Shown: positions 23,001-45,067, counted from the first letter of the stretch. The stretch: DNA of 64,000 bases from Planctomycetota bacterium (GCA_021776735.1 JAJFFH010000024.1:87744-151743); one strand, 5' to 3'. Notes: generated by a model from the sequence alone, not told the origin. Numbers and translations are program-made.

Positions 23001-24086
23001 ATGACGAGTTCTGTCGCCGTGCCGCCCCCCGCCGATACCGCCCAGCCGGACTGCGAGTTCCGGCGCCTTGACCCCACGGATCCGGCGTGGCAGGCCTTGC
23101 TCACAACCCACCCCCTCGCGGAGTCGGTGCGGCCGATGTGGGAAGAGGTCGCCGGGTGGGAAGCGATTCGGATCGGGAAGTTCACGGACGGCGATGTCCA
23201 GGCCGGAATCCAGTTCCACACCCGCGGCCTCCCCGGCCTGCCGTGGCGCCTCGCACGCATCACACAACTCCTGCCCACACCGATCGCGGACCGATCGCAG
23301 GCCTGCACGGCAGCGCTCCTGGCCGAAGCCGAACGCGTTGCGTGGGAACGCCGGGTCGTGGAAATCGAGTTCCGGGCGCACATCCCGGTGCCCGACATGA
23401 TCGACGCCCACGGGTTCCACTCGGGCATCGGCAAAGGGCTCGACCAGGCCGGTTACACGCAGGTTCCGGAGTTCAACGGCACCTACTTCGTCGATATTGA
23501 CCGCAGCGACGAGGAGCTCCTCCTCTCGTTCAAGAAAACCACGCGCAGCGAGGTCCGCCGCCCGAAGAAGAAGGGTTGCCGAATCGAAAGGGGCGACGAA
23601 TCCCTGCTTGAAACCCTGTTCGACGGGTACGCCGCTATGGGCGCGCGCAAGGGTCTCGGCGAAACAACGTTGCCGCGCCCGTTCGTGGTGGATCACATGA
23701 AACCGCTGGTACAGGCGGGCCATGTGCACCTGTACTACGCTGCGTACGGCGACGACATCAGCGACATCGCCCTGATCGATGCCCTCGGCACACCGATCAA
23801 CATGCAGTCGGTACGCCTGACCGCCAGCCTGTCGAACAAGTACCCGTCAGCCGCGCGCCGCCTCCACTACGTCATCATGACGATGCTCCGCGACGAGGGC
23901 AAAAAGCTGTACGACCTCGGCGGCAGCCCGGCGCCGGTCCCGATCCCCGGCCATCCGAACTACGGCGTCTGGCAGCACAAGTACCACTACAAGGGCACCT
24001 ACGTCCCGTACATCCCCCGCTTTCGCAAGGCACGAAGCCGCTTCGGTGCCAACCTCGCCCGAACCGTCCGCTTCGTCCGCGACTGA
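23001..24086 (+). CDS. FemAB-family (GNAT-fold aminoacyl-transferase-like) protein, copy 1
   Basis: 361 aa with the FemAB-like C-terminal half (...LHYVIMTMLRDEGKKLYDLGG...). Proteins of this kind are described next to exosortase/PEP-CTERM polysaccharide loci. Contains an in-frame copy of the dispersed 12-mer (FTDGDVQ). Confidence 0.65.
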   Translation: MTSSVAVPPPADTAQPDCEFRRLDPTDPAWQALLTTHPLAESVRPMWEEVAGWEAIRIGKFTDGDVQAGIQFHTRGLPGLPWRLARITQLLPTPIADRSQACTAALLAEAERVAWERRVVEIEFRAHIPVPDMIDAHGFHSGIGKGLDQAGYTQVPEFNGTYFVDIDRSDEELLLSFKKTTRSEVRRPKKKGCRIERGDESLLETLFDGYAAMGARKGLGETTLPRPFVVDHMKPLVQAGHVHLYYAAYGDDISDIALIDALGTPINMQSVRLTASLSNKYPSAARRLHYVIMTMLRDEGKKLYDLGGSPAPVPIPGHPNYGVWQHKYHYKGTYVPYIPRFRKARSRFGANLARTVRFVRD

Positions 24087-24140
24087 CGAGCCCGTCCGAC
24101 CGACAGCCCGAGGCTCATCGCGCAGGAATCCCGAGAAAGC

Positions 24141-24381
24141 CCACGGACGGCGATGTGTGCCCGAACCGCACATCCGCGCGGCAGGATTGCCTGGCACCAA
24201 TCAGGCTCGCAGTGCGGCAGGATTACATGGCACCGTCCCGGCTGACAGTGCAGCACGATTACGTGGCACCAATCAAGGCCGGGTGGTCGGCGTGCGTAAC
24301 CGATTGTCGCTAAACGGCTTGCGACGAATTCGCGCCGCTGCGGGCGGCGTCCCCGGGACATCGCCGTCCGTTTGCTTGCTG
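24141..24381 (+). repeat. composite intergenic repeat element A: inverted copies of the dispersed motif (24143-24154 and 24360-24371) flanking three 36-bp direct repeats (24178-24285) that each contain TGGCACC
   Basis: Repeat units GCGGCAGGATTGCCTGGCACCAATCAGGCTCGCAGT / GCGGCAGGATTACATGGCACCGTCCCGGCTGACAGT / GCAGCACGATTACGTGGCACCAATCAAGGCCGGGTG. TGGCAC at 24192, 24228 and 24264, exactly 36 bp apart. Confidence 0.75.
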
Positions 24382-24445
24382 CAGGATCCGCCGAGCCAAT
24401 GCCGCGGGCTAAGGCGTGCGCGGTGCTAGAACCGATGGAAGATTC

Positions 24446-26404
24446 GTGTGCGGCATAGCGGGATGGTTCCAACAAGACGGTGCGCCCGTCGACCCCTCGG
24501 TGCTGCGGGCGATGGGCGATGTCATCGAGCATCGCGGCCCCGATGAGGAGGGTTTTTTTCTCAGTCGATCGGAGCCGCCGCCGGAGTGGCCGGCCGGGGT
24601 GCCGCTACGCTGCGCTGGACCAGGCGTGGGCGAAGTGGGCTTTGCCCATCGCCGGCTGTCCATCATCGACCTCAAAACCGGGCAACAGCCGCTCTGCAAC
24701 GAGGACGGCACGGTCTGGATCGCCTTCAACGGCGAGGTCTACAACTTTGCCGGACTCAAGACCGAGTTGGAGGCCAAGGGCCACCGCTTCCGCACGAACT
24801 CCGACACCGAAACCATCGTCCACGGGTGGGAAGAGTGGGGTGAGGGCGTCGCCGAACGGCTCCGCGGCATGTTCGCGCTGGCGGTCTGGGATGCGAAGAA
24901 GCGTTCGCTCTACCTGGCTCGCGATCGCCTCGGGAAAAAGCCGCTGTACTACCTGCACGACGGCAAGCGCTTCCTGTTCGGCTCCGAAATCAAGTCGATC
25001 CTCGAGGTGCCCGGCGTGTCGCGCGACATCGATCCCATCGCGCTGTCGGACTACCTGTCCTTGCTCTACGTCCCGGCGCCGCGCTCGATCTTTCGCGCGG
25101 TCTCAAAGCTCCCGGCCGGCCATCACGCGATCGTGACGCCGGACCGGATGACGGTGAAGCCCTATTGGGACCTGTCGTTCGAGCCCGTGGACGAGGCGCC
25201 GCAGAGCGAACAAGAGGGGCGGCTGCTGGAGATCCTCGGCGACGCGACGGACATGCGCATGATGTCCGAGGTTCCGCTGGGCGCGTTCTTGTCCGGCGGC
25301 GTCGATTCCTCCGGCATCGTCGCGCTCATGGCCGGCCTGTCCGACCAGCCGGTGAAGACCGCGTCCATCTCGTTTAGCGAGAAGGCCTACGACGAGTCGC
25401 CGCACGCCCAAAGAGTCGCGGAGTTGTTCGGCACCGAGCACCACGTCATGCGGGTGACGCCGGACGCGGTCTCTGTCGTCGAGAAGCTGGCCTGGCACTA
25501 CGACGAGCCATTCGCGGACTCGTCCGCGGTCCCGACGTACTACGTCTCGAAGATCGCCCGCGAAAAGGTCACTGTCGCCCTTTCCGGCGACGGCGGCGAC
25601 GAGAATTTCGCTGGCTATCGCCGCTACGCGATCGACGCGCTCGAGCACCGCATCCGCGGCATGATGCCGCGCGGCCTCCTCGCGCTGGCGGGCCGGCTGT
25701 ACCCGAAGGCGGACTGGCTACCGCAGCCGCTACGCGCCAAGACCGTGCTCTCGAACGCCGCGCGCGACCCCGCGGCAGCGTATTGCCACACGATGTCGTT
25801 CCTGCACGAGGCCGACAAGCGTCGCCTGCTCGCCCCGGGCATGCTCGCCGCCCTCGACGGACACGAAACAGTGGAACTCTTTCGCCGCCACTACGACGCC
25901 GCGCGCGCGAACGACCATCTCTCGCGCCTGCAGTACCTGGACATCAAGACCTACCTCTGCGACGACATCCTGGTCAAGGTGGACCGGGCAAGCATGGCGA
26001 ACAGCCTGGAAGTACGCTGCCCGATTCTCGACCACGTCTTCATGGAGTACGCCGCGACGATCCCCAAGGACCGCAAGCTCAAGGGCAAGGACGGCAAGCA
26101 CATCCTCAAGAAGGCGTTCGGCCGGTTGCTTCCGGAAGACATCCTCTACCGCAAGAAGATGGGCTTCCGCGTCCCGATCAAGGAGTGGCTGCGAACCGAC
26201 CTCAAGGACTTCGCCCACGACCTGATCGTGAACGGCGCGGGCACCCAGACCTACCTCCAGGCCAACGAGGTCAGCCGCCTGTGGAACCAGCACCAGGGCG
26301 GCATGCGCGACCGCGCCACGGAGCTCTGGACACTCCTGATGTTCAACCTGTGGCACAAGACCTTCGTAGAACGCGGCTCCCCGATCGCCACGACCTCGGC
26401 CTGA
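24446..26404 (+). CDS. asnB: asparagine synthase (glutamine-hydrolysing)-family amidotransferase
   Basis: Start GTG 24446 gives M-CGIAG (Cys2 nucleophile). N-terminal Ntn glutaminase domain and C-terminal PP-loop SGGVDSS. The ORF tool's upstream start at 24416 is also GTG. Confidence 0.9.
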   Translation: MCGIAGWFQQDGAPVDPSVLRAMGDVIEHRGPDEEGFFLSRSEPPPEWPAGVPLRCAGPGVGEVGFAHRRLSIIDLKTGQQPLCNEDGTVWIAFNGEVYNFAGLKTELEAKGHRFRTNSDTETIVHGWEEWGEGVAERLRGMFALAVWDAKKRSLYLARDRLGKKPLYYLHDGKRFLFGSEIKSILEVPGVSRDIDPIALSDYLSLLYVPAPRSIFRAVSKLPAGHHAIVTPDRMTVKPYWDLSFEPVDEAPQSEQEGRLLEILGDATDMRMMSEVPLGAFLSGGVDSSGIVALMAGLSDQPVKTASISFSEKAYDESPHAQRVAELFGTEHHVMRVTPDAVSVVEKLAWHYDEPFADSSAVPTYYVSKIAREKVTVALSGDGGDENFAGYRRYAIDALEHRIRGMMPRGLLALAGRLYPKADWLPQPLRAKTVLSNAARDPAAAYCHTMSFLHEADKRRLLAPGMLAALDGHETVELFRRHYDAARANDHLSRLQYLDIKTYLCDDILVKVDRASMANSLEVRCPILDHVFMEYAATIPKDRKLKGKDGKHILKKAFGRLLPEDILYRKKMGFRVPIKEWLRTDLKDFAHDLIVNGAGTQTYLQANEVSRLWNQHQGGMRDRATELWTLLMFNLWHKTFVERGSPIATTSA

Positions 26405-26435
26405 TTCGAGCCGGAATCCACTCCGGGGCGGAAGC

Positions 26436-26780: not shown

Positions 26781-27887
26781 TTGCGGACACCTACGTTGCT
26801 GACCCCCACCATTTCCACGATTTCGAGTAGCTCGACCGTGACAATCGCGACCCCCTCCCTCGTGCGTGCGTTCCGAACATCGGACGCTCCCGCATGGGAC
26901 GAGTATGTGACGCGACATCCGCGGGCCACGTTTTTTCACCAGACCGGCTGGAAGCGCGTGCTCGAGCGGGCGTTCCCGCACGCTGCGTACTACCTCGTGG
27001 CCGAGCGCGCCGGCGCGATCTGCGGGGTGCTGCCGATGTTCTTGTGCCGCGGACTTCGAGGCCGGCTCGGCCTCTACTCGCTGCCGCACACTGTCTTCGG
27101 CGGTCCGCTCGGCGACGACCGCGCCGTGGAGGAATCGCTGCTTGCCGCCGCCCACAACCTGGGCTCCTCGCTCGGCGCACGCGTCCTGGAACTGCGCAAC
27201 CGCTACGAGAACCTGCTCGACCTGCCCGTCCACGAGGGCAACGTCACCTTCGAAAAGGAGCTGCCGGCCACGGTGGACGAGGTCAGGGGCACGTTCCCCA
27301 AGAACGCACGCGCGGCGATCAATCAGGCAGTGAAACGCAACGGGCTCTCCGCCGCGTTCACGCAGGAGCTCGACGTCTTCTACGAAATCCTGGGACAGAC
27401 TTACCACCGGCTCGGATCGCCCCTCTTTCCGCGCGAGTTCTTCGCCGCGATGCGCGACGAGTTCCCGGACGACGCGTTGATCCACGTCGTTCGCCAAGGC
27501 GACACGCCCGTCGCCGCCGCGCTCTGCCTGTGCTGGCGCGGCATCATCAGTCCGGTGTACAGCGGCCAGGCGCCCGGCGCACAACGGCTCAATGCCGACA
27601 ACTTCAAGTACTTCGACATCATGCGCGAGGCCGTCGCCCGCGGCATGACGCACTTCGACCTCGGCAAGACCCGCACGTCCAACACCGGCGGGATGAGGTT
27701 CAAGAAGCACCAGGGCTTTGTCCCGACGGCCCTGCCGTACCAGACCGTCGAGCTCGTGCCCGGCGCGGGCGACGACGGCTCCGATCCGACCAGCGGCTTC
27801 TTCATGAAAGCGCGGCGCATCTGGAGTCGCATGCCGGCCGGCGTGGCCGGTGTTCTCGGTCGGCGTCTGATCCGCTTTTTTCCGTAG
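26781..27887 (+). CDS. FemAB-family protein, copy 2
   Basis: 368 aa, paralogous in architecture to 23001..24086 (HQTGWKRVLERAF..., ...YFDIMREAVARGMTHFDLGKT...). Confidence 0.65.
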   Translation: MRTPTLLTPTISTISSSSTVTIATPSLVRAFRTSDAPAWDEYVTRHPRATFFHQTGWKRVLERAFPHAAYYLVAERAGAICGVLPMFLCRGLRGRLGLYSLPHTVFGGPLGDDRAVEESLLAAAHNLGSSLGARVLELRNRYENLLDLPVHEGNVTFEKELPATVDEVRGTFPKNARAAINQAVKRNGLSAAFTQELDVFYEILGQTYHRLGSPLFPREFFAAMRDEFPDDALIHVVRQGDTPVAAALCLCWRGIISPVYSGQAPGAQRLNADNFKYFDIMREAVARGMTHFDLGKTRTSNTGGMRFKKHQGFVPTALPYQTVELVPGAGDDGSDPTSGFFMKARRIWSRMPAGVAGVLGRRLIRFFP

Positions 27888-27896
27888 TCCCGTCCC

Positions 27897-29120
27897 ATGC
27901 GCGTCCTGACCTTTACCACCCTCTACCCGAACGGCGCCATGCCGAACCACGGCATGTTCGTGCGCAAGCGTATGGAAGCCGTCGCGCGGCGCCCGGGCGT
28001 CGAGGTGGTGGTCGTGGCGCCGGTGCCGTCCGCACCGAGGCTGCCGGGCTGGTCACGCGCCAAAGTGTTTTCCAGCGTGCCCAAGGCCGAAGAGATCGGC
28101 GGACTCTCCGTGCACCACCCGCGCTTCTTGTCGCTCCCCGGCGAGTGGGCCCGTCTCAAGCCGCGCTGGATCGCCCGTGGCGCCTGGGCATGCGTCCAGG
28201 CCTTGCATCGCGCGCAGCCGTTTGACATCGTCGATGCGCACTTTGCCCGCCCCGACGGCGCGGCCGCGGCGGAAATCGCGCGCCGCATCGGCCTGCCGCT
28301 CGTGCTGAGCGTGCGAGGTTCCGACATCCACCGCGACCTCGAACGCCCGCGCACAAGGCCGCTCGTCCTCGCGACGCTCCGCGCGGCGGCGTCCGTCATC
28401 TCGGTGGCGCAACCGCTGACCGACAAGATGATCGCCGCCGGGATCGCCGCGGACAAGATCGCCACGATCCCGAACGGCATCGATCTCGCCCGCTGGTCGC
28501 ACGTGGACCGCGACGCGGCGCGCGCCGAGCACGGAGTTGCGGACCAGCGCCGCATCGTCCTGAGCGTCGCCGCGATGAAGCCCGTGAAGGGCCACGACAC
28601 GTTGATCGAAGCCTTCGCGACGTTGGGTACGGACGGCGATATCTCCGACACGGAGCTGTGGCTCGCGGGCGCCGGTCCGTTGCACGACGAACTCCGGCGC
28701 CGCGTGGCGCAACTCGGCCTCACAAAACGCGTGCGTTTTCTGGGTGCCGTGCCGCACGACAAGCTGCCCTCGCTGTATGCCGCCGCGGACATCTTCGCGC
28801 TGCCGAGCCGCAACGAGGGCTGCCCGAACGTCGTGCTGGAGGCGCTTGCCTCCGGCTGTCCGGTCGCCGCAACGGCGGTCGGACACGTACCGCACATGGT
28901 GCGCAACCGCGAGAACGGCCTCGTTGTTCCCGCGGACGATCCCCGCGCCTTCGCTCTTGCGTTGCGCGCACTTCTGAAAACATCGCCGTCACGGACTGTA
29001 GTCCGAGCCACCGTGGCCGACTGCACCTGGGACGACGTCGCCGCACGGGTAGCCGGCGTCTTCCAAGGCGCCCTGGACCTGAAACCGAACACGGAAACGA
29101 GCATCTCCCAATGCGGGTAA
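27897..29120 (+). CDS. glycosyltransferase, GT4 (group 1) family
   Basis: 407 aa. C-terminal GT-B segment ...FLGAVPHDKLPSLYAAADIFALPSRNEGCPNVVLEALASGCPVAATAVG... Contains an in-frame copy of the 12-mer (GTDGDIS). Confidence 0.8.
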   Translation: MRVLTFTTLYPNGAMPNHGMFVRKRMEAVARRPGVEVVVVAPVPSAPRLPGWSRAKVFSSVPKAEEIGGLSVHHPRFLSLPGEWARLKPRWIARGAWACVQALHRAQPFDIVDAHFARPDGAAAAEIARRIGLPLVLSVRGSDIHRDLERPRTRPLVLATLRAAASVISVAQPLTDKMIAAGIAADKIATIPNGIDLARWSHVDRDAARAEHGVADQRRIVLSVAAMKPVKGHDTLIEAFATLGTDGDISDTELWLAGAGPLHDELRRRVAQLGLTKRVRFLGAVPHDKLPSLYAAADIFALPSRNEGCPNVVLEALASGCPVAATAVGHVPHMVRNRENGLVVPADDPRAFALALRALLKTSPSRTVVRATVADCTWDDVAARVAGVFQGALDLKPNTETSISQCG

Positions 29121-30421
29121 TCGCCATCCTCATCTGCTACGGCGTCGGAACGCTGCTGAGTCTGCGCTCCGTCACGTATGCCGCGTGCCTCTTTATCTGG
29201 AGCGAGATCTTTCGGCCGATCGATTTCGCCTGGCGCGTCTTCGAATTCCCGGCCGCGCACCTCGTGGCGGCGACGCTGCTGCTCTCGCTCTTCATGGCGA
29301 AGTGGCAGAGGCGCTGGAATCCGGTCGCCACGCTCGTTCTGGCCATGATCGGCTGGATCTACGTGTGCGCGTTCTTCGCCGTCCACCGCGTGGTGGCCAT
29401 GGATCACGCGCTGTTCGCGACGAAGTACCTGATCCCGCTCGTCATCATCTCGATCTCGCTGACGACGCGATGGTCGCAGAAGATGTTTCTGTACACCCTG
29501 GCAGCCTCCGTCGGCCTCTGGGCCGCCCAGGCCGGTCTGCACCTGGCCAGCAAGGGCCCCGGCGACGAGGTGTTCATTCGCGGCGGCCAGATGTCGGACC
29601 GCAACGACTTCATGGCGGGCGTGCTCGCCTGCCTGCCCATGCTCGTCTACATCGCCCGCAGCTACGACTGGCGATACAAGAAACTCATGCGCGCCGCGGC
29701 GTGGGCGATGATCGCCATGAGTCTCGTCGCGATGGTCCGCTCCAATTCGCGCGGCGCGATTCTCGGCGCCGGACTGCTGTTCGCGTTCTTCCTGCTCGCG
29801 ACCGGGCGCATCGGCAAGCGGCTCGTCCTTGGCGGCGCGGTCGTGGTCGTCGCGCTCATGTTCATGCCGGACTCCGTGGTCGAGCGCATGAGCACGATCG
29901 AGATGAGCACCGATGTGCAAACCGAGAGTTCCGCGTCCAACCGCCTCGCCCTGGCAAAGATCGGCATCGAGATGACGCTCGACTATCCGATTACCGGCGT
30001 CGGCCCGAAGAACTTCACCTACCTCGTGACGAGCTACGGCTTCGACACGCGGCACGATCCGCACACGATCTGGCTCAAGGCGTCCGCCGAGTACGGCTTC
30101 CCGATGCTGATGCTGTTCTTGCTGACCATCTGGCTGATTCTCAGCCGCCTCGCCCGCGAACGAAAGTTCGCCGCGGAACGGGGCGATCGCGACACGGAAC
30201 GGCTGGCGATCACGCTCTCCTGCTCGATCGTGGGCTTCCTGGGTGCGGCAACATTCCTGAGCCAGTTCCTGAGCGAGTATTTCTGGGCCATCTGCTGCCT
30301 CACCGGAGCGTTCATCGGACGCGAGGAATACCGTCGCCGCAACCCCGACGCGGCAACCCGGGAAATCGAAGAAGTGCTCGACGACCAACCCGCACCCGGC
30401 CAGACCGTCGGGGCGCAGTAG
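29111..30421 (+). CDS. O-antigen ligase / Wzy-like polysaccharide polymerase family membrane protein
   Basis: About 10-12 TM segments and a large periplasmic loop (...VRSNSRGAILGAGLL...). 10-bp overlap with the upstream glycosyltransferase stop. Confidence 0.7.
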   Translation: MRVIAILICYGVGTLLSLRSVTYAACLFIWSEIFRPIDFAWRVFEFPAAHLVAATLLLSLFMAKWQRRWNPVATLVLAMIGWIYVCAFFAVHRVVAMDHALFATKYLIPLVIISISLTTRWSQKMFLYTLAASVGLWAAQAGLHLASKGPGDEVFIRGGQMSDRNDFMAGVLACLPMLVYIARSYDWRYKKLMRAAAWAMIAMSLVAMVRSNSRGAILGAGLLFAFFLLATGRIGKRLVLGGAVVVVALMFMPDSVVERMSTIEMSTDVQTESSASNRLALAKIGIEMTLDYPITGVGPKNFTYLVTSYGFDTRHDPHTIWLKASAEYGFPMLMLFLLTIWLILSRLARERKFAAERGDRDTERLAITLSCSIVGFLGAATFLSQFLSEYFWAICCLTGAFIGREEYRRRNPDAATREIEEVLDDQPAPGQTVGAQ

Positions 30422-30477
30422 ACAAGCAGGCAGCAGGCTCTCGCACCGGCGCGCATGGCGCGCTCGGCATCGACACG

Positions 30478-30506
30478 AAAAAAAGGGCGGCCCATGCGGG
30501 CCGCCC
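30478..30506 (-). terminator. rho-independent terminator for the minus-strand large lipoprotein gene (possibly bidirectional)
   Basis: AAAAAAA GGGCGGCCC ATGC GGGCCGCCC. On the minus strand this reads as a perfect 9-bp GC stem followed by a T7 run, 35 bp downstream of the 30540 stop. Confidence 0.7.
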
Positions 30507-30539
30507 CTCTCAATTCTCATGGGTCCTGTGGGCCGAAGC

Positions 30540-33500
30540 CTACGGGACGCTGACTGTCGCGACGTTGCTCACGTCGCTCATCTGCTTCTCGGTGAGCGCA
30601 ACCAGCGCGACATAGATCGTGCCGGAGGCCGAAACCTCAAACTCGATCGTCTTGCTGGCACCCGCCGCCACCGGGAAAATTCCGGCGGAGTTGGAAGCCC
30701 AAGCCTGGCGAACACCACTGCCGCTGTCATAGGTCGGCGCGATGGGCTCGGTGGACCAGACCAACAGCACGCGCTCGGCATTCGCCGGAGCGGTGAAGCT
30801 CGCCCGCACCTTGCCGCCCGCGACCGAAGCGGACAGGTTCGTGACCTTGCCCGGACGGGCATGGTTGTTCACGCCTTCCTGGATGTGCCACCAGTAGGCG
30901 CGGGTCTCGTAGGAACCGTTCCAGGCCCCGGAGCCCCAGTTGTTGCCGTACGGCGCCTTGCCGTCGCCGACGCCGCCGTCGATGAAGTCGTCGACGAGCG
31001 TTCGGTGGCCTTCCTGGCCGGTGATCTGATACCAGTAGACCTCGGGGTCGATCATGCTCAGGCCCGAACCACTCGACTTGTTGTTGACCTCGTCGTGTCC
31101 GACGTAGTAGCCGAAGCGGCCGCTGTTGAGCTGCCAATCCATGATGCCCCAGAGGAACTGGAACGCCCGCGCTTCATGCTCGGGATGATGGTTGCGCATC
31201 TCGTTGTAGGCCCCGGAGAACGTGCGGGCCATAAAGCCCATCTGGAACGACGCTTCGCCGTTCTTGCGGAAGTTGCCGTAGCGGGGGAAGTAGGTGAACG
31301 TGCGAATCCACTCGAGCCGGTTCTTGATCGCACTCAGAAGCGAGGCATCGCCGGTTACGCGGAACGCTGCCAACGACTGCGCCAGCATGTGCGCCTCGCC
31401 GCGTGTTTCCCAGTTCCACTCGAAGAGACCGTCATCGTCATCCTGGTCCTTGGTGGTGCGCAGGAGCGACCGCTTGCGGAACTCGCCCATCCACTCGTAC
31501 CAGTCCCGAATCCACGGGTTGGCCGACTGGAAGTAGAAGTCCTCCATGTGGTAGAGCCAGCCGTGCTCGTTGTCCCGCGGCTTCCACTCGGTTGTGGAAG
31601 TGCCGGACAGGTACGGCGCGGCCAAGTACGGACGACCGTGGCCGTCGAACGCGCGCCAGCTCTTGCCGCCGTACGGGTTCATGGTCGGGGTGATGGTCGC
31701 GAAGTCAGCCTCGTGCGTGTAGCCGGGGATCCACATGGGGCGTACGTAGATGTCGCCGTAGACCCAGGCCTCGGTCTCGTAGTAGTCCTGGACGCGCCCG
31801 CTGGCGAAGAAGTGTCCGCCACCACGCGGCCAGTCGCCGACCTGGTTGGACTTCTTGCGCTTGGAATCGCCGCCGTAGTTGACCCAACCGAGACGGTACC
31901 GGGCGTGACCCGGATCGCGGTGCTTTTCCTCGAACTGCGGCACCTTGTTGTCGGCGCCGGAGACGAACGACGTGGACATCGAGCCGCCGAGCCCGGGCAC
32001 GGCGCCCGAGTTGGCGTAGTCCGCCGCCGGGATCACCGTGACGGGGTGCCACGTGAAGTTGGCAGCGAGCGCCTCGATCTCGTTGTTCGAGGTGTTGGCG
32101 CCGTGGAAGTAGAGCAGAGTCTCCTTGACGGAGCACTGCATCTCCTCGAGCCAGTACAGGCCCGTGCCGTTGTGGTCGCCGTTGAGGAACATCGAGCTCC
32201 ACTTGGGCCAGAGACGGACGGCGATGTTCTTGTCGCTCTCGATCTCGACCGCGTTCGGCCAGCGCAGCGCCATGTGACGAATCATCACGGCGACGCCCTT
32301 GCTGGAGTCCGAAACGTCGGCCCAACCGAACGACTCGGTGCCGGCCGTGTGCGACCCGCTCTCGAGCGTGCTGTTGTTGCCCGAGTCGCGTACGACCGAG
32401 CTGTGGTCGGTGTTTTGGAAGACGTGACGCCCCGAGCCGAGCGCGCCCTGCCAAACGACGCCGGCCTTGGGGCTCATGCGCACGGTGGCCGAGCCCAGGC
32501 TCGGCTTGAGGTTCAGCGAAACGTCGTCGAAGTACAGCGGCGAGGAGAACTTGACGTTCTTCGCGCCGTTCTGGAGCTGATAGTCGACCTTCACGAACGC
32601 CTTGCCGGCGTACGCGAACAACCGCACGGCGAAGCCGTGGCGATGGTCGGTTGTGCTGTGGTACGAGCCGAGGCTCTCGATGCGGATCACGGCCCGCAGC
32701 GGTCCCGCCTCCTCGACCTTGACGGTGAGGTTGGTGCGGTCGCGACTGCCCTGGACGTCGCCGTCCAGGCGACCGGTGAAGACGGCGCCCTCGCTGGCCC
32801 CGGACTCGATGATCCGCTCGGAGGCGGCGTACGAGCCGTTGCCGTCGGCATCGACGTCAACCGTGTCGAAGATGTTGAAGCCGCTCTTCTTGACGGTGAA
32901 GCGCACCTTGCCCGTGTCGACCGTGACCAGATCGCTGGTCTCGGTGACGTTCAGGGCCATGCTCGGCGCGGGGTTCGCGCCGCCATCCGACTTGAAGAAG
33001 AACGTCGCGTCCCCATCGGCGGGAACTGTGGCCGTGAAGTGTGCGGCAACAAAGCGCAGGCTGTTGTCGCGCGCCCACCAGCGGCTGAGAATCTTGAACT
33101 GCGCGGCGACGGAATTGCCGTCCGCGTCGGTGATGCGGAACTTGTCGATCGACTGGTACTGACCGAAATCCATCGGGATCACCGCGATGACGGGGTGCGC
33201 CGTCGCGCCGTAGCCGGCGGCGTCCTTGACCGTCAGGCGGATGCCGTCACCCTGCGGCGCCTCGTCGTCGGAAGCGACGATGGAGACGCGCACGGGATCG
33301 GCGCCGGTCAACGTGACCTGCGCGACCGCAAGGCCGTCGATGGAGTTGGCGTCCTGAACGGCACTGAACGTGACCGTCTGGATCTGGTCCCAGTTGTCGC
33401 GCGTAAACGTCAGGCTCGCGGGACCGCTGTAGACCAGCGACCCGTCGTTCTCGACGATCTCGATTGCGATGGTAACCGTCTCGGCCGGGAGCGCCGAAAG

Positions 33501-36680: not shown

Positions 36681-36693
36681 GCGGACGAACGCC

Positions 36694-37937: not shown

Positions 37938-38921
37938 ATGTCCATCGAAATCGACACGTCGTACTCGTCTTCATCCTCCTCGGGCTCCTCGCCGTCTGGG
38001 TCCTCCGGCTCCTCCGGCTCCTCCGGATCCCCCGGTCCGGGCGCGTCGATGCCCGGTGCACCGCCGATCCCGGCACATGCACTCACGATCGACGTCGAGG
38101 ACTGGTATCACGTCGAAAACCTGACCCCGGTCTGCCCGCCCGACCGCTGGGACAGCTACGAGGCCCGCCTGCCGGCCAACCTCGACCGCATGCTGGATCT
38201 TTTCGACGAAGCGGGCGTCAAGACGACGTGCTTCGTGCTGGGCCGCGCCGCGGAGCGCCACCCGGAAATCGTCGGCAAAATCGTCGCCCGCGGCCACGAA
38301 CTCGCATGCCACGGCTGGTCGCACGAGCTGATCTACCGCCAGACACCCGCGGAGTTCCGCGAGGAGACGATCCGCGCCAAGAAATTCCTCGAGGACCTCG
38401 CAGGCATCGCCGTCCTTGGCTACCGCGCATCGACCTTCTCCATCGTCGAGAAGACCCTGTGGGCGCTCGACATCCTGGCTGAGGCGGGGTTTGAATACGA
38501 CTCGTCAATCGCTCCGTTGCACCACGATCGGTATGGCATCCCGGACTCGCCGAAGCAGCCTCATCGAAGGGAGCTGACGGACGGCGATATCTTGGAGTTT
38601 CCGGTCTGCACGATGCATGGATTGCGCCGCACCTTCCCGCTCGGCGGTGGGTTTTTCCGGTTGTTCCCGGTGTCGTGGGCGCGCAAGAGCATCGAAGAGC
38701 ACGCCGCGCGCGGACAGAGCGCGATGGTGTATCTGCACCCGTGGGAGATCGATCCCGGCCAGCCGCGCGTAGACGGCCTCAAGTGGAGCCACCGCTTTCG
38801 GCATTACGCGCGGCTCGGCGCCACGATGGGCAAGCTCCGGCGCCTTCTGAAGGGCCACCGCTGGGACACGATGGCCTCGATTCTGGGGCTCGCGGGAGAC
38901 GCCGCCGAGGGCAACGCCTAA
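37938..38921 (+). CDS. polysaccharide deacetylase family protein of the subfamily described at exosortase (PEP-CTERM) loci
   Basis: LTIDVEDWYHVENL..., CHGWSHELIYRQT..., LGYRASTF..., YLHPWEIDP. Ser/Gly-rich N-terminus encoded by GGCTCCTCC repeats. Contains an in-frame copy of the 12-mer (LTDGDIL). Start uncertain (37938 or 38047). Confidence 0.8.
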   Translation: MSIEIDTSYSSSSSSGSSPSGSSGSSGSSGSPGPGASMPGAPPIPAHALTIDVEDWYHVENLTPVCPPDRWDSYEARLPANLDRMLDLFDEAGVKTTCFVLGRAAERHPEIVGKIVARGHELACHGWSHELIYRQTPAEFREETIRAKKFLEDLAGIAVLGYRASTFSIVEKTLWALDILAEAGFEYDSSIAPLHHDRYGIPDSPKQPHRRELTDGDILEFPVCTMHGLRRTFPLGGGFFRLFPVSWARKSIEEHAARGQSAMVYLHPWEIDPGQPRVDGLKWSHRFRHYARLGATMGKLRRLLKGHRWDTMASILGLAGDAAEGNA

Positions 38922-38956: not shown

Positions 38957-40054
38957 ATGAAGATCATAAACGTCGTCGGCGCGCGTCCCAACTTCATGAA
39001 GATGGCGCCGCTCGTGCACGAACTGAACCGGCGCGGCATCGAACAGATGCTGGTGCACACCGGCCAGCACTATGACGACAACATGTCGAAGGTCTTTTTC
39101 GACGACCTGCGCATGCCCGCGCCCGACGTCTACCTGGGCATCGGTTCCGGCTCGCACTCCGAACAGACCGCCAAGGTCATGGTCGAATTCGAAAAGGTGT
39201 GTTTGGAACACAAGCCGGACCTTGTGGTCGTGGTCGGAGATGTCAACTCGACGCTCGCGTGCAGCATCGTGGCCGCCAAGCTCTGGATCGCGGTCGCCCA
39301 CGTGGAGGCTGGTCTACGCAGCTTCGACATGAAGATGCCAGAAGAGGTCAACCGGATCGTGACCGACCGGCTGACCGACCTGTTGCTGACTCCGTCGCCC
39401 GACGGGGACGAAAACCTCCGTAAGGAGGGCGTCGCCGAGGAGCGAATTCACCGGGTCGGCAACATCATGATCGACTCGCTGTTCGCGAACGTCGAGCGCG
39501 CGAAGGACTCGAAGATCCTCGACGAACTCGGCCTTGCCCCCAAGGGCTACGGCGTGCTGACGCTGCACCGCCCGAGCAACGTCGATGATCCGGAGATACT
39601 CCTCAAGCTCATGACGGTCCTGCACGAGATCTCCGAGCGCCTGCCGCTGGTTTTTTCCTGCCATCCGCGTACGGCGCAGCGGCTTGAAGATCTCGAGGCA
39701 TACGCGCGCCTCAAGGACCGCGGCGATCTCCGCATCCTGCCGCCGAAGGGCTACCTCGACTTCATGCGCCTCGTGTCGCAGAGCCGTCTTGTGCTCACGG
39801 ACTCCGGCGGCCTGCAGGAGGAGACCACGGCCCTGCGCATCCCGTGCGTGACGATCCGCGAAAACACGGAAAGGCCGATCACGATCACGGAAGGCTCCAA
39901 CACGCTGGCCGGCACCAACCCGGACAAGATCCGCGCCGCCGCGTACGCCGCCTTGGACGGCGACCAAAAGGACACGAGCGTCCCCGACCTGTGGGACGGC
40001 AAGACCGCCCACCGCATCGTGAACGTATTCGAATCCTGGTGGGCCGCGCGCTAG
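38957..40054 (+). CDS. wecB: UDP-N-acetylglucosamine 2-epimerase (non-hydrolysing)
   Basis: MKIINVVGARPNFMKMAPLVHEL...HTGQHYDDNMS...GDVNSTLACSIVAAKL...LTDSGGLQEET... Confidence 0.9.
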   Translation: MKIINVVGARPNFMKMAPLVHELNRRGIEQMLVHTGQHYDDNMSKVFFDDLRMPAPDVYLGIGSGSHSEQTAKVMVEFEKVCLEHKPDLVVVVGDVNSTLACSIVAAKLWIAVAHVEAGLRSFDMKMPEEVNRIVTDRLTDLLLTPSPDGDENLRKEGVAEERIHRVGNIMIDSLFANVERAKDSKILDELGLAPKGYGVLTLHRPSNVDDPEILLKLMTVLHEISERLPLVFSCHPRTAQRLEDLEAYARLKDRGDLRILPPKGYLDFMRLVSQSRLVLTDSGGLQEETTALRIPCVTIRENTERPITITEGSNTLAGTNPDKIRAAAYAALDGDQKDTSVPDLWDGKTAHRIVNVFESWWAAR

Positions 40055-41748
40055 CGCGGGCGCGCGGGCAACTCGGTCGGTCGCCAGTAGGCCGCGCCCT
40101 TGACCCAGGCCAGGTTCAGCGCGAAGAAAGACCGCCCTGGACCAAGATCGACCACGAGAATCCTCGCGGCGCGCTTCCGAGAGAACGTCTTGTGCCGCGC
40201 CGCAAGGAGTCTTCTTGAAACCGGAGACGCGTCGGCCGCACAGACAACAATCCGGATCTTCGACCGATCCCGGATCAGGTCCAATACGGTCGCGCCCCAC
40301 GAACGAAGTTCGCCCACCCTCGCCCGTTCGGGCGGTTCGAAGTGGCCGCGCATTTCCACGGGCGCGGCCGTTTGGAGCAGGCCATGCAGATGTTTGGCCC
40401 ATCCCCGCCCGGTCCAACCGCCCCGGTCCACGTCCATGCGCGGCGAAGGATCGACCAGAAACAGGATCGGGTCTTCCGACGGCGTCAGAAAGTCGGCGAA
40501 GAGATCCTCTGCCGCGGGCCCGCTGAGATCGTCCGGGAGCATGGGTGGCGTGCCGAGCTGTGCGAGATGGACCGCCAGTCGCCCTCCCGGCGGCCTCTTG
40601 CCCACACCATCCAGAATCAGGAGCGCCTTTTGGGGGTCGGCCTTCAGGCCCCCGCGCCGGACAAACGCCCGGAACTTCTCCCACCGCACGTAGCGGATCG
40701 ACCATTCGAGCCCGCTTGCACTCCGGCGACGCAGCGCGCGCTCCACATCATAGCGCCCGAGATAGGCGATCGCTGCCACACCCAAGAGGTAGCCGATCCG
40801 CCCGTAGCGGTAAAAAACCCACGGCGGCGCGTCCACCCAACGGGCCAACGTGTCGTTCGGGAACACGAAGCCGTACGCCTCCCAGTGGGACAGATAGCGG
40901 TTCAGCAGAGCCAGGAGCGGCCCCATCCGCGCCAGTGGAAAGCCGATATCGCGATCGCCCTTCCGGCCGAGCGCCAGGTATTTGGCCAGCCCCTCGCCGA
41001 CCAGCCGCGAGTCGGTGAACCGCTCGTTGAGATAGAACGTGACCGCGTGCGCGAGCTCGTGTTTCAGGGTGCGGCGTCGGTAGCGCGGCGGAGACTTGGT
41101 GCGAACGACAATGAACCGGTCGTCCAGAAAGTAGGTGCCAGCGGCACGCGCGTTCTTGAACCCGCGAAAGACCTCTGCGCCCATTCGGGGGGTTGCGAGC
41201 ACGTCGATTCGATGCGGGAGGCGGCCGCGCGCTACAGAGAGCCAAAGATCGACGAGACGTTCCCCCTCGGTGCGATCGTACTCGTGATAGCGCCCGTCGA
41301 GCGTCCAGAAGCGTAGGTGATTACCACCGCTGACCTGTTTGGGAAGCGTGTACAGGTAGAGCCGGGACACGCTGGCCTTCCACGGCCAGCGCTCATCGAA
41401 CCGATCCGCAGCCACGAAGTGCTCCGACAGCGCGTTTAGCTCTTCGGGACCCTTGGCACCCCACACGTACGGGTTGAGGTTTAGGCGACGCACGAACGGA
41501 GTCGGGCCGTCCAGCGGGGGAAGCTCGGGACGGCGATGCTTTTGAACATCGGTGCCGGGCGCGGTATCGAGGTCGGGTGCGGGGTCGGGGTCGCGACTGG
41601 GATCCTTGGGCCTGTCCTGCTCCGCCGGGTACGCCACGATTTCGCCCTGCCCGCGTGATCCGGACCCGTTGATGTCGCGCGTGAGCAGCCAGATCAGACC
41701 GATCGCCACCAAGATGACCGCAACGAGAATGAACCGGTCGGCCCTCAT
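40051..41748 (-). CDS. membrane-anchored protein with HExxH zinc-metallopeptidase-like motif
   Basis: N-terminal TM MRADRFILVAVILVAIGLIWLL, Pro/Asp-rich linker, then ...TLKHELAHAVTFYLNERF... No further family assignment from the sequence. Confidence 0.5.
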   Translation of the reverse strand: MRADRFILVAVILVAIGLIWLLTRDINGSGSRGQGEIVAYPAEQDRPKDPSRDPDPAPDLDTAPGTDVQKHRRPELPPLDGPTPFVRRLNLNPYVWGAKGPEELNALSEHFVAADRFDERWPWKASVSRLYLYTLPKQVSGGNHLRFWTLDGRYHEYDRTEGERLVDLWLSVARGRLPHRIDVLATPRMGAEVFRGFKNARAAGTYFLDDRFIVVRTKSPPRYRRRTLKHELAHAVTFYLNERFTDSRLVGEGLAKYLALGRKGDRDIGFPLARMGPLLALLNRYLSHWEAYGFVFPNDTLARWVDAPPWVFYRYGRIGYLLGVAAIAYLGRYDVERALRRRSASGLEWSIRYVRWEKFRAFVRRGGLKADPQKALLILDGVGKRPPGGRLAVHLAQLGTPPMLPDDLSGPAAEDLFADFLTPSEDPILFLVDPSPRMDVDRGGWTGRGWAKHLHGLLQTAAPVEMRGHFEPPERARVGELRSWGATVLDLIRDRSKIRIVVCAADASPVSRRLLAARHKTFSRKRAARILVVDLGPGRSFFALNLAWVKGAAYWRPTELPARPR

Positions 41749-41768
41749 TGGCCGATGATGTTTCCTAT

Positions 41769-42614
41769 ATGAGAGTCTTGGTCACCGGTGCCCGCGGAAT
41801 GCTTGGGCGTGCTGTCGTCGCGGCGGCTCCGGCGGGTGCGATCGTCGTCGGCGTGGACCGGGACGAGGCGGAGCTGTCCAACGCCGCCGCCGTGGCCGAG
41901 CTGTTCGCGCGTGAGGGCTCCGTAGGCGCCGTTATTCACTGTGCCGGTTATACCGCCGTCGATGCGGCCGAGTCCGACGAAGCCGGTGCGTGGCGCGACA
42001 ACGTCGATGCGATGCGCGAGGTCGCGGCGGCCTGCGCGCGGACCAATGCCGCGTTCTTGGGAGTGAGCACGGACTACGTTTTCGACGGACTCGCGGACCG
42101 ACCGTATCGCGAGAACGACACCAAGAGTCCGGCGTCGGTGTACGGCCGCAGCAAGCTCGCCGGCGAACGCGCCGCCCGCACCGTGCATCCGAAGGGCACG
42201 CGCATCGTGCGCACGGCGTGGCTGTACGGCCCGCACGGCGGCCACTTCCCCCAAACGATTCTCAGACTCGCCAGGGAGCGGACGGAGCTCAAGGTCGTGG
42301 CCGACCAGCGCGGCTCGCCGACCTCGACCCTCGAGCTGGCCCCGGTGCTCTGGGAACTGCTCGACGCCCCTCCGGACGTGTACCACGCCGCCGGCGACGG
42401 CGACGCGACCTGGTTCGATGTCGCGCAGGCGACGCTCGAACTTGCGGGCGTCGCCGACGTGGGAGTCATGAGGTGCACGACGGCGGAGTTTCCCCGTCCT
42501 GCCCCCCGGCCCCCCTATGCTGTACTCGACTGCGCCAAGCTCGAGGCGACGATCGGAAGTCGGCTGCGTCCCTGGCGCGTGGCCCTCGCTGACTATCTTG
42601 AGAACCATGAGTGA
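41769..42614 (+). CDS. rfbD: dTDP-4-dehydrorhamnose reductase
   Basis: MRVLVTGARGMLGRAV...TDYVFDG...YGRSKLAGE (SDR, RmlD-like). The tool's upstream start is at 41748. Confidence 0.85.
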   Translation: MRVLVTGARGMLGRAVVAAAPAGAIVVGVDRDEAELSNAAAVAELFAREGSVGAVIHCAGYTAVDAAESDEAGAWRDNVDAMREVAAACARTNAAFLGVSTDYVFDGLADRPYRENDTKSPASVYGRSKLAGERAARTVHPKGTRIVRTAWLYGPHGGHFPQTILRLARERTELKVVADQRGSPTSTLELAPVLWELLDAPPDVYHAAGDGDATWFDVAQATLELAGVADVGVMRCTTAEFPRPAPRPPYAVLDCAKLEATIGSRLRPWRVALADYLENHE

Positions 42615-43650
42615 ATTCGACACCCTCCTCGTCACCGGCGGCGCCGGCTTTATCGGCTCGAACTTCGTGCATGTCGTCGCCGAACGGACACCCGCCCGCC
42701 GCGTCGTGGTCCTCGACAAGCTGACCTACGCGGGCAACGCGGAAAACCTCGCCGGGCTCGATGTCGAACTCGTGCGCGGCGACATCGCGGATCCGGAAGA
42801 CGTCGGGCGGGCCTTTCAGGCGACAGGTACAGGGGGGGGCGGGGGCGCCGAAAACATCGCCGTCATTCACTTCGCGGCGGAGACTCATGTCGATCGCTCC
42901 ATCGAGTCCGCCCTGCCGTTTTTGCACACCAACGTGGTCGGCACCCAGGTGCTGCTGGACGCCGCGCGCGAACGCGGCGTGCGCCGCTTCGTGCATATCT
43001 CGACGGACGAGGTGTACGGCCCGATTCCGGACGGCGTCTTTACGCCGGAGGACGACCTGCTCAATCCGACCAATCCGTACTCGGCGAGCAAGGCGGCGAG
43101 CGAACACCTGGTGCACGCCGCCACAATCACCCACGGCATCGACGCCGTGATCACGCGCTGCTCGAACAACTACGGGCCGTATCAGTTCCCGGAGAAGCTG
43201 ATCCCGCTGATGATCGCCAACGCGAGCGAAGACAAGCCGCTGCCGGTGTACGGCGACGGCCTGTGCGAACGCGACTGGACCCACGTGCGCGACCACTGCG
43301 ACGCCGTCCTCGCCGTCCTGGAGCGCGGGCGCGCCGGGGCGACCTACAACATCCCCGGCAACACCCACAAGACCAACCTGGAGGTGCTGCACTTCCTGCT
43401 CGACGTGCTCGGCAAGCCGCGCTCGCTGATTCACCACGTTAAGGACCGGCCGGGCCACGACCGCCGGTACGCTCCGGACGGCGCGCGCATCCAAAGCGAA
43501 CTCGGCTGGACCCCTTCGCGGACGTTTGACGACGCGATGGAAGAAACCGTCCGCTGGTATCAGGACAACACCGACTGGCTCGAACGCGTCCGCAGCGGGG
43601 AATACCGCAATTACTACGAGCGCCACTACGGCGAGAGGCTGAAGACGTGA
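42607..43650 (+). CDS. rfbB: dTDP-glucose 4,6-dehydratase
   Basis: [15 protein letters not shown]...[11 protein letters not shown]...[11 protein letters not shown]... Start overlaps the rfbD stop (ATGAGTGA). Contains a Gly5 insertion encoded by a G8 tract at 42832-42839. Confidence 0.9.
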
Positions 43651-44534
43651 GCGCGGCGCGACGCGGCATCATCCTGGCTGGGGGCTCCGGCACACGGCTG
43701 CACCCGATCACCAAGGCGACGAGCAAGCAGCTCCTGCCGGTGTACGACAAGCCGATGGTGTACTACCCGCTGTCCACGTTGATGCTCGCCGGGATTCGCG
43801 AGATCCTCGTAATCACCACCCCGCGCGACAGCGAGGCGTTTCAAACGCTGCTCGGCGACGGCGCGGAATGGGGCCTTGAGCTGCGCTACGCGACGCAGCC
43901 CAACCCCGGCGGACTCGCGCAGGCGTTCTTGATCGACGAGACGTTCGTCGAGGGTCGTTCGAGCGCGCTGGTCCTCGGCGACAACATCTTCTTCGGACAC
44001 GGGCTGGCGAAACGACTCCAAGCCGCCAATGCGCACGACGGCGGTGCGACGGTGTTCGGCTACTACGTCAAGGATCCGCAGCGGTACGGCGTCGTCGAAC
44101 TGGACCGCGACGGCAACGCGCTCTCGATCGAAGAGAAACCCGAAAGCCCGAAGTCGCACTACGCCGTCACAGGCCTCTACTTCTACGACGACACGGTGCT
44201 CGACATCGCCCGCAACCTGAAGCCGAGCGCGCGCGGTGAACTCGAAATCACCGACGTCAACGCGCGTTACCTCGAACGCGGCGCACTGCGCGTCGAAACG
44301 CTGGGCCGCGGCATGGCATGGCTCGACACCGGCACCGTCGATTCGCTGCTGCAGGCGACGAACTTCATCGAGACCATCGAAAGCCGGCAGGGACTAAAAA
44401 TCGCCTGCCCGGAAGAGATCGCGTGGCGGATGAACTACATCGACGATCGCGGACTGGAAACGCTCGCCGACAAACTCAAGAAGACGGTGTACGGCGAGTA
44501 CCTGAGAGAAATCCTCAGGGACGGACGGCGATGA
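43647..44534 (+). CDS. rfbA: glucose-1-phosphate thymidylyltransferase
   Basis: [50 protein letters not shown]... GTG start overlapping the rfbB stop. The last codons (...RDGRR*) lie inside a copy of the 12-mer. Confidence 0.9.
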
Positions 44535-45067
44535 ACGTCGAGAAGACTTCGCTCGCCGGCGTGCTCTTGATCGAGCCCAGGGTTTTCGGCGACCATCGCG
44601 GTTTTTTTTCAGAGACATGGCACGCGGAGCGGTACGCGGAACACGGCGTGCCGACGCGGTTCGCGCAAGACTGCGCGTCGCTCAGCAAGAAGGGCACGCT
44701 GCGCGGCATTCATCTGCAACGCCCGAGTCCGCAGGGAAAACTCGTCTGGGTGTCGCGCGGCGAGGTCTGGGACGTCGCCGTGGATCTTCGGTCCGGCTCC
44801 CCCACGTTCGGCCAGTGGACGGCCCACACGCTGAGCGCAACGAACCACCGCCAACTCTGGATCCCGGAGGGCTGCGGCCACGGCTTCGTCGTCACCAGCG
44901 AGGAAGCGCTGTTCACCTACAAGTGCACGGCCAAGTACGCCCCGGAGTGCGAGCGGGCGATCCGCTGGAACGACCCGGGACTCAATATCTCCTGGCCGAT
45001 CGACGACCCGATCCTGAGCGACCGGGACGCCACCGCGCCATCTTTGGAAGAGTTCCAGGCGGAGTAG
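44531..45067 (+). CDS. rfbC: dTDP-4-dehydrorhamnose 3,5-epimerase
   Basis: ...[11 protein letters not shown]...RGIHLQ...[20 protein letters not shown]...TFGQW... (cupin, RmlC). Its ATG (44531-44533) is the GATG end of the 12-mer and overlaps the rfbA TGA. Confidence 0.9.

Follow-up and report, generated by a model that had tools for sequence, protein, structure and literature searches.

A Planctomycetota polysaccharide locus with XrtA-associated gene families and no exosortase in the surrounding 64 kb

The closest described counterparts of the locus presented here are the XrtA/PEP-CTERM exopolysaccharide (EPS) loci of Proteobacteria (epsH, zooglan-type), part of the PEP-CTERM/exosortase system defined by Haft et al. 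2006 (PMC1569441). The same study reported homologues of the deacetylase, glycosyltransferase and related families in PEP-CTERM-negative genomes and listed Rhodopirellula baltica as having an EpsH gene without linked partner or EPS genes, alongside 12 PEP-CTERM proteins (PMC1569441). In Sphingomonadales the exosortase and EPS clusters of this type are not always found together (2025 preprint), and floc-forming bacteria carry large conserved clusters with two asparagine-synthetase genes. We analysed a locus of this kind at positions 23001-45067 of a 64,000-nucleotide stretch from a Planctomycetota bacterium (GCA_021776735.1 JAJFFH010000024.1:87744-151743), the whole of which is called the window. 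We propose that the locus encodes one part, that for sugar supply, assembly and modification, of a dispersed Wzx/Wzy-type pathway to a surface polysaccharide or exopolysaccharide, with an exosortase, if there is any, unlinked and encoded elsewhere; we put the probability of this reading at roughly 0.65.

A second counterpart is the Wbp/Vim pathway of Porphyromonas gingivalis and Tannerella forsythia, in which VimE, a putative CE4 deacetylase, has been proposed to take off a 2-N-acetyl group, VimA, a match to TIGR03019, then adds serine or glycine, and the AsnB-like WbpS makes a uronamide, together giving the linking sugar to which the cargo of type IX secretion systems (T9SS) is attached (Veith et al. 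2020, PMC7468200). The same trio adjoins exosortases in Nitrosomonas, Nitrosococcus and Desulfovibrio, and homologues of vimA and vimE occur in species without a known exosortase (PMC7468200). For XrtA systems an aminoacyl sugar has been proposed as the acceptor for exosortase-cleaved PEP-CTERM proteins, a hypothesis that comes from the T9SS field.

Gene content of the locus

The G+C content of the window is ~66%, and raw lists of open reading frames (ORFs) are consequently full of shadow frames; genes were called by third-position G+C (GC3) and codon usage, and every candidate was scanned with NCBIfam and Pfam. By these scans, the genes listed in an earlier note on this DNA are all present in the order given there:

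23001-24086, +, FemX-like aminoacyl transferase, the first FemAB-superfamily gene (PDB 6snr, Pfam FemAB)
24446-26404, +, AsnB-type glutamine amidotransferase, XrtA-associated subfamily (TIGR03108, TIGR01536, GATase_7 and Asn_synthase)
26781-27887, +, second FemAB-family protein, XrtA/PEP-CTERM-associated type, VimA-like (TIGR03019)
27897-29120, +, GT4 glycosyltransferase (best NCBIfam match TuaC-like, 168 bits; also TIGR03088 and TIGR04063; all NCBIfam scores below cutoffs)
29111-30421, +, Wzy/O-antigen-ligase-like polytopic membrane protein (Wzy_C, DUF5935, TIGR03097)
30540-33836 (likely start 33788), -, large secreted lipoprotein, PcRGLX-like, 1098-residue ORF (PcRGLX_2nd)
33886-33978, -, predicted cyclic di-GMP (c-di-GMP)-I riboswitch aptamer in the 5' leader of the lipoprotein gene (RF01051)
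34360-35634, +, GT4-like glycosyltransferase (Pfam Glyco_transf_4 34.9 bits, Glyco_trans_4_4 34 bits)
35631-36680, +, NodB/CE4 polysaccharide deacetylase of general type (Polysacc_deac_1 86.2 bits, weak PgaB-like NCBIfam match); its start and the stop of the preceding GT4 gene overlap, and the call agrees with that in L003
36694-37836, -, GT4 glycosyltransferase (best NCBIfam match TIGR03088, the PEP-CTERM/XrtA-system glycosyltransferase, 126.3 bits over the full length, far under the cutoff of 409)
38049-38921, +, XrtA-system-type deacetylase, NodB with DUF3473 (TIGR03006)
38957-40054, +, wecB, UDP-GlcNAc 2-epimerase of the WecB/WbpI family (TIGR00236 331.3 bits, cutoff 210)
40051-41748, -, membrane-anchored HExxH protein, putative gluzincin metallopeptidase (HExxH...EGLA(K/E)Y signature)
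41778-42614, +, rmlD, dTDP-4-dehydrorhamnose reductase (TIGR01214 264.6 bits, cutoff 224; start adopted from the L003 gene call)
42607-43650, +, rmlB, dTDP-glucose 4,6-dehydratase (TIGR01181 419.9 bits, cutoff 365; ATG at 42607)
43647-44534, +, rmlA, glucose-1-phosphate thymidylyltransferase (TIGR01207 488.4 bits, cutoff 361)
44531-45067, +, rmlC, dTDP-4-dehydrorhamnose 3,5-epimerase (TIGR01221 227.3 bits, cutoff 156)

Four of these genes have an XrtA-associated family as their best or sole NCBIfam match. The deacetylase at 38049-38921 passes the TIGR03006 cutoff (339.6 bits, cutoff 276.2), matches Pfam DUF3473 (143 bits) and Polysacc_deac_1, and keeps the columns that are invariant across 16 family members, including the Asp, Glu and His positions; its relatives carry the NCBI name 'XrtA system polysaccharide deacetylase'. 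The amidotransferase scores 760.3 bits with TIGR03108, under the cutoff of 816.9, and 502 bits with TIGR01536; its GTG start at 24446 gives Met-Cys-Gly, so that the N-terminal nucleophile (Cys2) is retained, and its nearest solved relative is the hydroxyamidotransferase 7ylz (E 3e-56). The second FemAB-family protein matches TIGR03019 over the full model with 249.8 bits, under the cutoff of 260.35, and in Pfam Acetyltransf_6, FemAB and FemAB_like, with a weak PDB match to 9wqy, an aminoacyl-tRNA-dependent peptide synthase; its orthologue in the related locus L006 passes TIGR03019 with 282.2 bits. The Wzy-like protein, which has about eight transmembrane (TM) segments, has TIGR03097, the XrtA-associated O-glycosylation ligase, as its sole NCBIfam match (126.4 bits, under the cutoff of 188.1), matches Wzy_C with 76.9 bits and DUF5935, and reaches E 1.5e-81 with a hidden Markov model (HMM) of ligase-like proteins from the reference loci. 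A longer ORF over the same region, 29185-30615, was rejected as the Wzy-like gene; it is the longest ORF there, in the wrong frame with an Arg-rich nonsense translation, and GC3 selects 29111-30421 instead.

Four co-located best or sole matches to XrtA-associated families are far beyond chance. Judged by sequence, the second FemAB-family protein, the amidotransferase and the ligase-like protein are the closest relatives of the XrtA families and not certified equivalogs. The description in the earlier note of a gene set as known around xrtA therefore holds by HMM scores, none of which placed the FemAB, amidotransferase or deacetylase genes in unrelated subfamilies. Its 'paired FemAB-like genes' are indeed two in number, and yet they are not a matched pair. 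The first is FemX-like, with PDB 6snr (Lipid II:glycine glycyltransferase) at E 7.6e-17, Pfam FemAB at 23.9 bits, slightly short of the gathering score (24), and only 28.7 bits with TIGR03019, and a 40%-identical orthologue is present in the related locus L095. As BLASTP finds no similarity between it and the second, TIGR03019-like copy, the two are distinct FemAB-superfamily enzymes and not a duplication. The wecB gene also has parallels: in 16 loci among the matches listed, deacetylase and a wecB homologue are no more than 10 kb apart, and in many canonical XrtA loci the homologue is ~1.1 kb upstream of the deacetylase.

No gene candidate in the window gave an NCBIfam match to an exosortase (TIGR03109, TIGR02602, TIGR04178; PF09721). 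An XrtA HMM was built locally from 41 polytopic proteins adjoining the deacetylase in reference genomes, one of which was verified as TIGR03109 (323.6 bits, cutoff 208); it scored 169-179 bits on the divergent Planctomycetota-type exosortases of loci L092 and L093, taken as positive control, and found no six-frame match in the window even at E<=10. PEP-CTERM tails were found in none of the six frames of the window, either by a PEP-like motif expression or by a motif-free scan for a hydrophobic helix with a basic tail, and the NCBIfam scans of the window candidates gave no match to TIGR02595. The polytopic proteins of the window are TrkH, a neurotransmitter:sodium symporter (NSS) family transporter, the Wzy-like protein, an ICMT-like and a DUF420-like protein, and a four-TM protein beside an extracytoplasmic function (ECF) sigma factor, which is too short for an exosortase and gave no match with the XrtA HMM. 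The NCBIfam scans, the XrtA HMM, the tail scans and the survey of polytopic proteins thus agree with the earlier note that the window holds no exosortase and no PEP-CTERM protein.

Other functions of such a pathway are lacking as well. EpsI, Wza/Wzc, Wzx and a priming transferase had no NCBIfam match among the window candidates, a Wzx HMM and a priming sugar transferase HMM found nothing in the window, and components of the EpsE/F/G type (outer-membrane polysaccharide export, OPX; polysaccharide co-polymerase, PCP; kinase), PrsK/PrsR/PrsT and an EpsB priming transferase were not above noise in the window. A tetratricopeptide repeat (TPR) protein considered as PrsT was rejected, as its 30 bits, against a cutoff of 312, reflect generic TPR similarity. 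The Wzx/Wza/Wzc export genes for which the earlier note had looked to the neighbourhood were accordingly not found within the window. As Wzx, a priming transferase and Wza/Wzc are absent together with the exosortase, the locus appears as one part of a dispersed pathway, and that the window has no exosortase carries no more weight than its lack of Wzx, the priming transferase or the export genes. Since Wzx is present in the related loci L006, L088 and L094, the missing Wzx, priming and export functions are probably encoded elsewhere in the genome.

Like the proteobacterial XrtA loci, the locus has members of the TIGR03006, TIGR03019, TIGR03108 and TIGR03097 families, TIGR03088-related GT4 enzymes and an adjacent wecB. 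Unlike them, it has no xrtA or epsI between the FemAB and amidotransferase genes and a different gene order, the window has no PEP-CTERM, EpsE/F/G, PrsK/R/T or EpsB genes, and it adds rml genes, a second NodB deacetylase, the FemX-like gene, the lipoprotein with its predicted riboswitch and the HExxH protein. With the Wbp/Vim pathway it shares a CE4 deacetylase, a TIGR03019-like transferase and an AsnB-like amidotransferase in one locus, where the links of VimA to TIGR03019 and of WbpS to TIGR03108 are taken from PMC7468200 and not from direct alignment, and a 2-epimerase of the WecB/WbpI type; the window differs in not being from Bacteroidota and in having no T9SS context. As in Wzx/Wzy-dependent loci, there are a Wzy-type polymerase or ligase, three GT4 enzymes, and rmlABCD and wecB genes that all score above their cutoffs, whereas the Wzx flippase, the priming phosphoglycosyl transferase and the OPX/PCP pair of those loci are not in the window.

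Exosortase linkage in relatives and reference loci

The reference set consists of 80 GTDB loci among the matches listed, with TIGR03006-like deacetylases 42-52% identical to that of the window, and full flanks were available for 50 of them. XrtA lies within 10 kb of the deacetylase in 32 of these 50, mostly ~2.2 kb away, and is absent from that distance in the other 18. The XrtA-linked loci follow a stereotyped order of deacetylase, FemAB (+0.8 kb), XrtA (+2.2 kb) and amidotransferase (+4-5 kb). A neighbour-joining tree of the deacetylases, which leaves out the related loci L094 and L095, groups the window with five relatives in a clade that has no XrtA linkage; its sister branch joins L046 (Planctomycetota, XrtA adjacent) with L036 (Allorhodopirellula, unlinked), and the alpha-, beta- and gamma-proteobacterial clade is almost uniformly XrtA-linked. 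Two Sphingomonas loci, L016 and L022, hold the deacetylase, FemAB and amidotransferase genes in this order with no XrtA gene at its usual place between the latter two; the branches neighbouring them in the tree all have XrtA there.

Seven close relatives (L004/L005, L006, L087, L088, L090/L091, L094 and L095), Planctomycetota-labelled metagenome-assembled genomes by their NCBI names, have deacetylases 58-79% identical to that of the window; the organism of the window is uncultured, and its taxonomic label in this analysis likewise comes solely from the names that NCBI gives to relatives. Within the available flanks, neither a PF09721 annotation nor a match to the XrtA HMM was present in any of the seven. 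The locus is conserved among them as a mosaic. In L004/L005 and L006, synteny with the window continues as far as the downstream uracil-DNA glycosylase (UDG), TolB-like and TPR genes; L094 shares the lipoprotein (49% identical), a GT4 gene (50% identical), the deacetylase, wecB, rmlB and rmlA; L095 shares the FemX-like gene, NodB, GT4 and one DegT-like gene; and in L090/L091 the neighbourhood of the deacetylase includes GT4 genes, two FemAB-like genes and one Wzy_C gene. In L087, of assembly GCA_021776785.1, and in L088 there are genes for a GNAT protein, an acyl carrier protein, an acyl-CoA ligase and a pyridoxal phosphate (PLP)-dependent decarboxylase and two or three AsnB paralogues, which are typical of XrtA loci. 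In these two (L087 3219-8614, L088 13114-18512) the GNAT, acyl carrier protein, acyl-CoA ligase, PLP decarboxylase and GT4 genes form a block with tandem AsnB genes, with no exosortase within 10 kb. Unannotated genes beside the deacetylase in L087, L088 and L090 were considered as cryptic exosortases and rejected, having 0-2 hydrophobic segments and no match to the XrtA HMM.

Both Planctomycetota-type exosortases that we examined stand in small exosortase-EpsI-PilZ-Bac_transf cassettes (L092 10001-14658, L093 8731-14103), and the L093 cassette also has a DUF3473 deacetylase 43% identical to that of the window. These cassettes, like the R. baltica EpsH RB2461, come from the same broad lineage label as the window and have the exosortase split from a large glycan locus; unlike the window they hold an exosortase, EpsI, PilZ and Bac_transf, and thereby exactly the priming function that the window lacks. 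We also observed that they join the sorting enzyme with a c-di-GMP receptor domain (PilZ) and a priming glycosyltransferase, and not with a large EPS locus.

As the genes are unlinked from an exosortase in all seven relatives and in 18 of the 50 full-flank reference loci among the matches listed, the biosynthetic module is separable from the exosortase. The alternative offered in the earlier note, that of a 'divergent variant of the system', is for the same reason overstated. The locus is of a known kind, and its exosortase-unlinked arrangement is common and already in the literature.

The lipoprotein leader, the HExxH protein and the flanks

The large lipoprotein has a signal peptide, an LLPAC lipobox-like site followed by a Pro/Asp/Glu-rich N-terminal linker, and a Pfam PcRGLX_2nd match of 41 bits (gathering score 23.5); its likely start is the ATG at 33788 (30540-33788), preceded by an aaaggaga ribosome-binding site. 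A PDB sequence search with it gave nothing meaningful. By its domain match the lipoprotein is a candidate polysaccharide-processing enzyme with a beta-sandwich domain like that of fungal exo-rhamnogalacturonan lyases, which may cleave or trim a rhamnose-containing polymer; the locus also makes dTDP-rhamnose, to judge from its rml genes. A full-length orthologue, 49% identical and in the same position, is found in L094 (126-3341, -).

The aptamer at 33886-33978 (-), ~97 nt upstream of the likely lipoprotein start, matches RF01051 over the full model (1-87) with 61.5 bits (gathering score 35) and E 1.3e-9. It is kept ahead of the orthologous gene in L005 (1600-1691, -, 60.7 bits) and L094 (3421-3515, -, 58.4 bits), and the structure is preserved in all three aptamers, with one compensatory pair. 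The predicted c-di-GMP-I riboswitch would put the lipoprotein under c-di-GMP control. Like other c-di-GMP-I (GEMM-I) riboswitches it matches the full model, lies in a 5' leader and belongs to a biofilm/EPS-related locus; it is unlike them in that the downstream gene is a PcRGLX-like lipoprotein and in that no intrinsic terminator was found. A sigma-70-like promoter was not found near it either.

The HExxH protein is not polytopic, its only hydrophobic segment being at the N-terminus. No Pfam or NCBIfam match was obtained, and a PDB sequence search gave nothing meaningful. A word-indexed search of 5.8 billion proteins returned one homologue, the syntenic gene of L004 (2654-4300, -), and the family has 58 representatives among 1.84 billion proteins. 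In the 48 aligned members, H230, E231, H234, E252 and G253 of the gluzincin-like signature HExxH-x17-EG(L)AEY are invariant, and 39 of the 48 have the N-terminal hydrophobic segment. An AlphaFold2 model from a two-sequence alignment had a pLDDT of 42. From the signature, the protein represents a rare gluzincin-like family and is a putative metallopeptidase.

The locus probably extends to ~48.5 kb and would then include the following genes beyond rmlC:

45236-45943, small secreted protein
46127-47287 (-) and ~47391-48542 (+), two divergent DegT/DnrJ/EryC1-like PLP aminotransferase genes (Pfam 87.4 and 78.2 bits)

The DegT-like genes, whose 5' ends overlap as called, match only the N-terminal half of the DegT_DnrJ_EryC1 model. 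The pair is not in L004 or L006, and in L095 the deacetylase is flanked by DegT-like genes, one of them 38% identical; we tentatively regard the genes at 46127-48542 as an accessory part of the locus.

The left flank (1-23000) holds trkH/trkA, queF, an FAD oxidase, a saccharopine dehydrogenase, an HtrA-like protease, the ECF sigma factor, an FG-GAP/ASPIC protein and the NSS transporter. The transporter gene is followed by an ORF with a C-terminal match to the MetS-like NSS small subunit (20929-22894, +), which marks the left boundary of the locus. The gene for the ECF sigma factor (15961-17207, -) is preceded on the same strand by that of the four-TM protein without a family match, a possible anti-sigma partner. 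The right flank contains the secreted protein, the two DegT-like genes, a family-4 UDG, a TolB/PD40-like protein, a 1247-residue TPR protein, two FHA-Ser/Thr kinases and thiI; it covers ~19 kb of the window, and a further ~5 kb past its end (L001) holds peptide ABC-transporter genes. The two FHA and Ser/Thr kinase fusion genes are in tandem at 59022-61606 (+), where the ORFs overlap as called and the second start is probably further downstream; just upstream of them, on the minus strand, are the genes for a 396-residue and the 1247-residue TPR protein. A block of UDG, TolB/PD40 (Tricorn-like) and ~1240-residue TPR genes lies behind the locus in the window (48556-57827), in L004 (8212-11520) and in L006 (18336-20846), a conserved synteny that supports placing these three in one lineage. 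A tRNA search found no tRNA genes.

Proposed pathway, alternatives and implications

By homology, RmlABCD supply dTDP-L-rhamnose and WecB a 2-epimerised N-acetyl-hexosamine of the ManNAc type, the three GT4 enzymes build a repeat unit, and the Wzy/O-antigen-ligase-like protein polymerises or ligates this unit. By analogy with the Wbp/Vim pathway, the CE4 deacetylase may take off the N-acetyl group, the FemAB/VimA-like transferase may put an amino acid on the freed amine, with the FemX-like enzyme perhaps adding another, and the AsnB/WbpS-like amidotransferase may convert a carboxylate into an amide. Given an exosortase elsewhere, sorted proteins could have the modified sugar as their acceptor; if the genome does encode an exosortase, its most likely place is a small cassette of its own that also holds the priming transferase missing from the locus. 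Several points weigh against this proposal. Three of the four matches to XrtA-associated families are under the curated cutoffs. A UDP-sugar 6-dehydrogenase and the Wbp genes for a 2,3-diacetamido-uronic acid (WbpA/B/E/D) were not found in the window, which leaves the Wbp/Vim analogy incomplete, and NCBIfam scans showed no GFO/IDH/MocA oxidoreductase and no hexapeptide acetyltransferase in the window. In addition, the roles given above to the lipoprotein and the HExxH protein are guesses.

It is possible, although in our view somewhat doubtful, that the genome is without any exosortase and that the deacetylase, FemAB and AsnB module only decorates a surface polysaccharide, changing its charge or structure, with no role in protein sorting, a reading that would fit the vimA/vimE clusters found in Pseudomonas mosselii, Aeromonas and Vibrio. 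That no exosortase was found in the 64 kb and the further 5 kb here or in the flanks of the seven relatives, the unlinked reference loci, and the vimA/vimE homologues of species without known exosortases (PMC7468200) all speak in its favour. However, co-occurrence with exosortase genomes was the basis for defining the TIGR03006 equivalog, exosortases and PEP-CTERM proteins are commonly encoded apart from EPS genes in Planctomycetota (PMC1569441; L092, L093), and Wzx, the priming transferase and the export genes must lie elsewhere too, so that absence from the window says little.

The suggestion in the earlier note that the exosortase and its partners lie just beyond the window (within ~30 kb), as one large contiguous XrtA locus, is very unlikely. 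The parent contig is 163,781 bp long, with ~100 kb of it beyond the window, and in some reference loci XrtA is 9 kb from the deacetylase; here, however, nothing exosortase-related is found in ~23 kb on either side of the locus, as compared to the ~2.2 kb that separate XrtA and deacetylase in canonical loci. On one side there are 23 kb of unrelated genes (TrkAH, QueF, HtrA-like, ECF sigma, NSS transporter), and on the other 19 kb (UDG, TolB-like, TPR, FHA-kinases, ThiI) and the 5 kb of peptide ABC-transporter genes; the same non-EPS neighbours stand behind the locus in L004 and L006, and the canonical place of the exosortase is between FemAB and AsnB.

A speculative scenario, to which we give little credence, is that a clade without exosortases keeps the acceptor-sugar genes and couples the sugar to another partner, for example the HExxH protein, while the riboswitch-controlled lipoprotein remodels the matrix; if this were true, the HExxH protein would process or attach surface proteins as an enzyme of a new kind. 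That the HExxH gluzincin-like protein replaces the exosortase outright, processing cargo proteins or attaching them to the aminoacylated glycan, is the least probable reading of all, as, notwithstanding the rarity of the family, its absolutely conserved zinc-peptidase signature, its usual N-terminal membrane anchor and the position of the gene between wecB and rmlD in both the window and L004, there is no BLASTP orthologue at that position in L094 and none called in L006, L087, L088, L090 or L095, the window has no cargo candidate with a C-terminal signal, no transpeptidase of such a kind is known, and the structure model is unusable.

Returning to the proposed dispersed pathway, the most useful by-products of the analysis are the riboswitch and the rare HExxH family. 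The conserved c-di-GMP riboswitch predicted ahead of the lyase-like lipoprotein offers a direct and testable way into the regulation of the locus. More broadly, the 'XrtA-associated' set of deacetylase, FemAB, amidotransferase and ligase is a separable glycan-modification module that a whole clade keeps without a neighbouring exosortase, and names such as 'XrtA system polysaccharide deacetylase' are consequently not evidence of an exosortase system. The linked and unlinked loci together form a compact comparative set for the hypothesis of the T9SS field that the module makes the aminoacyl sugar bearing the sorted proteins.

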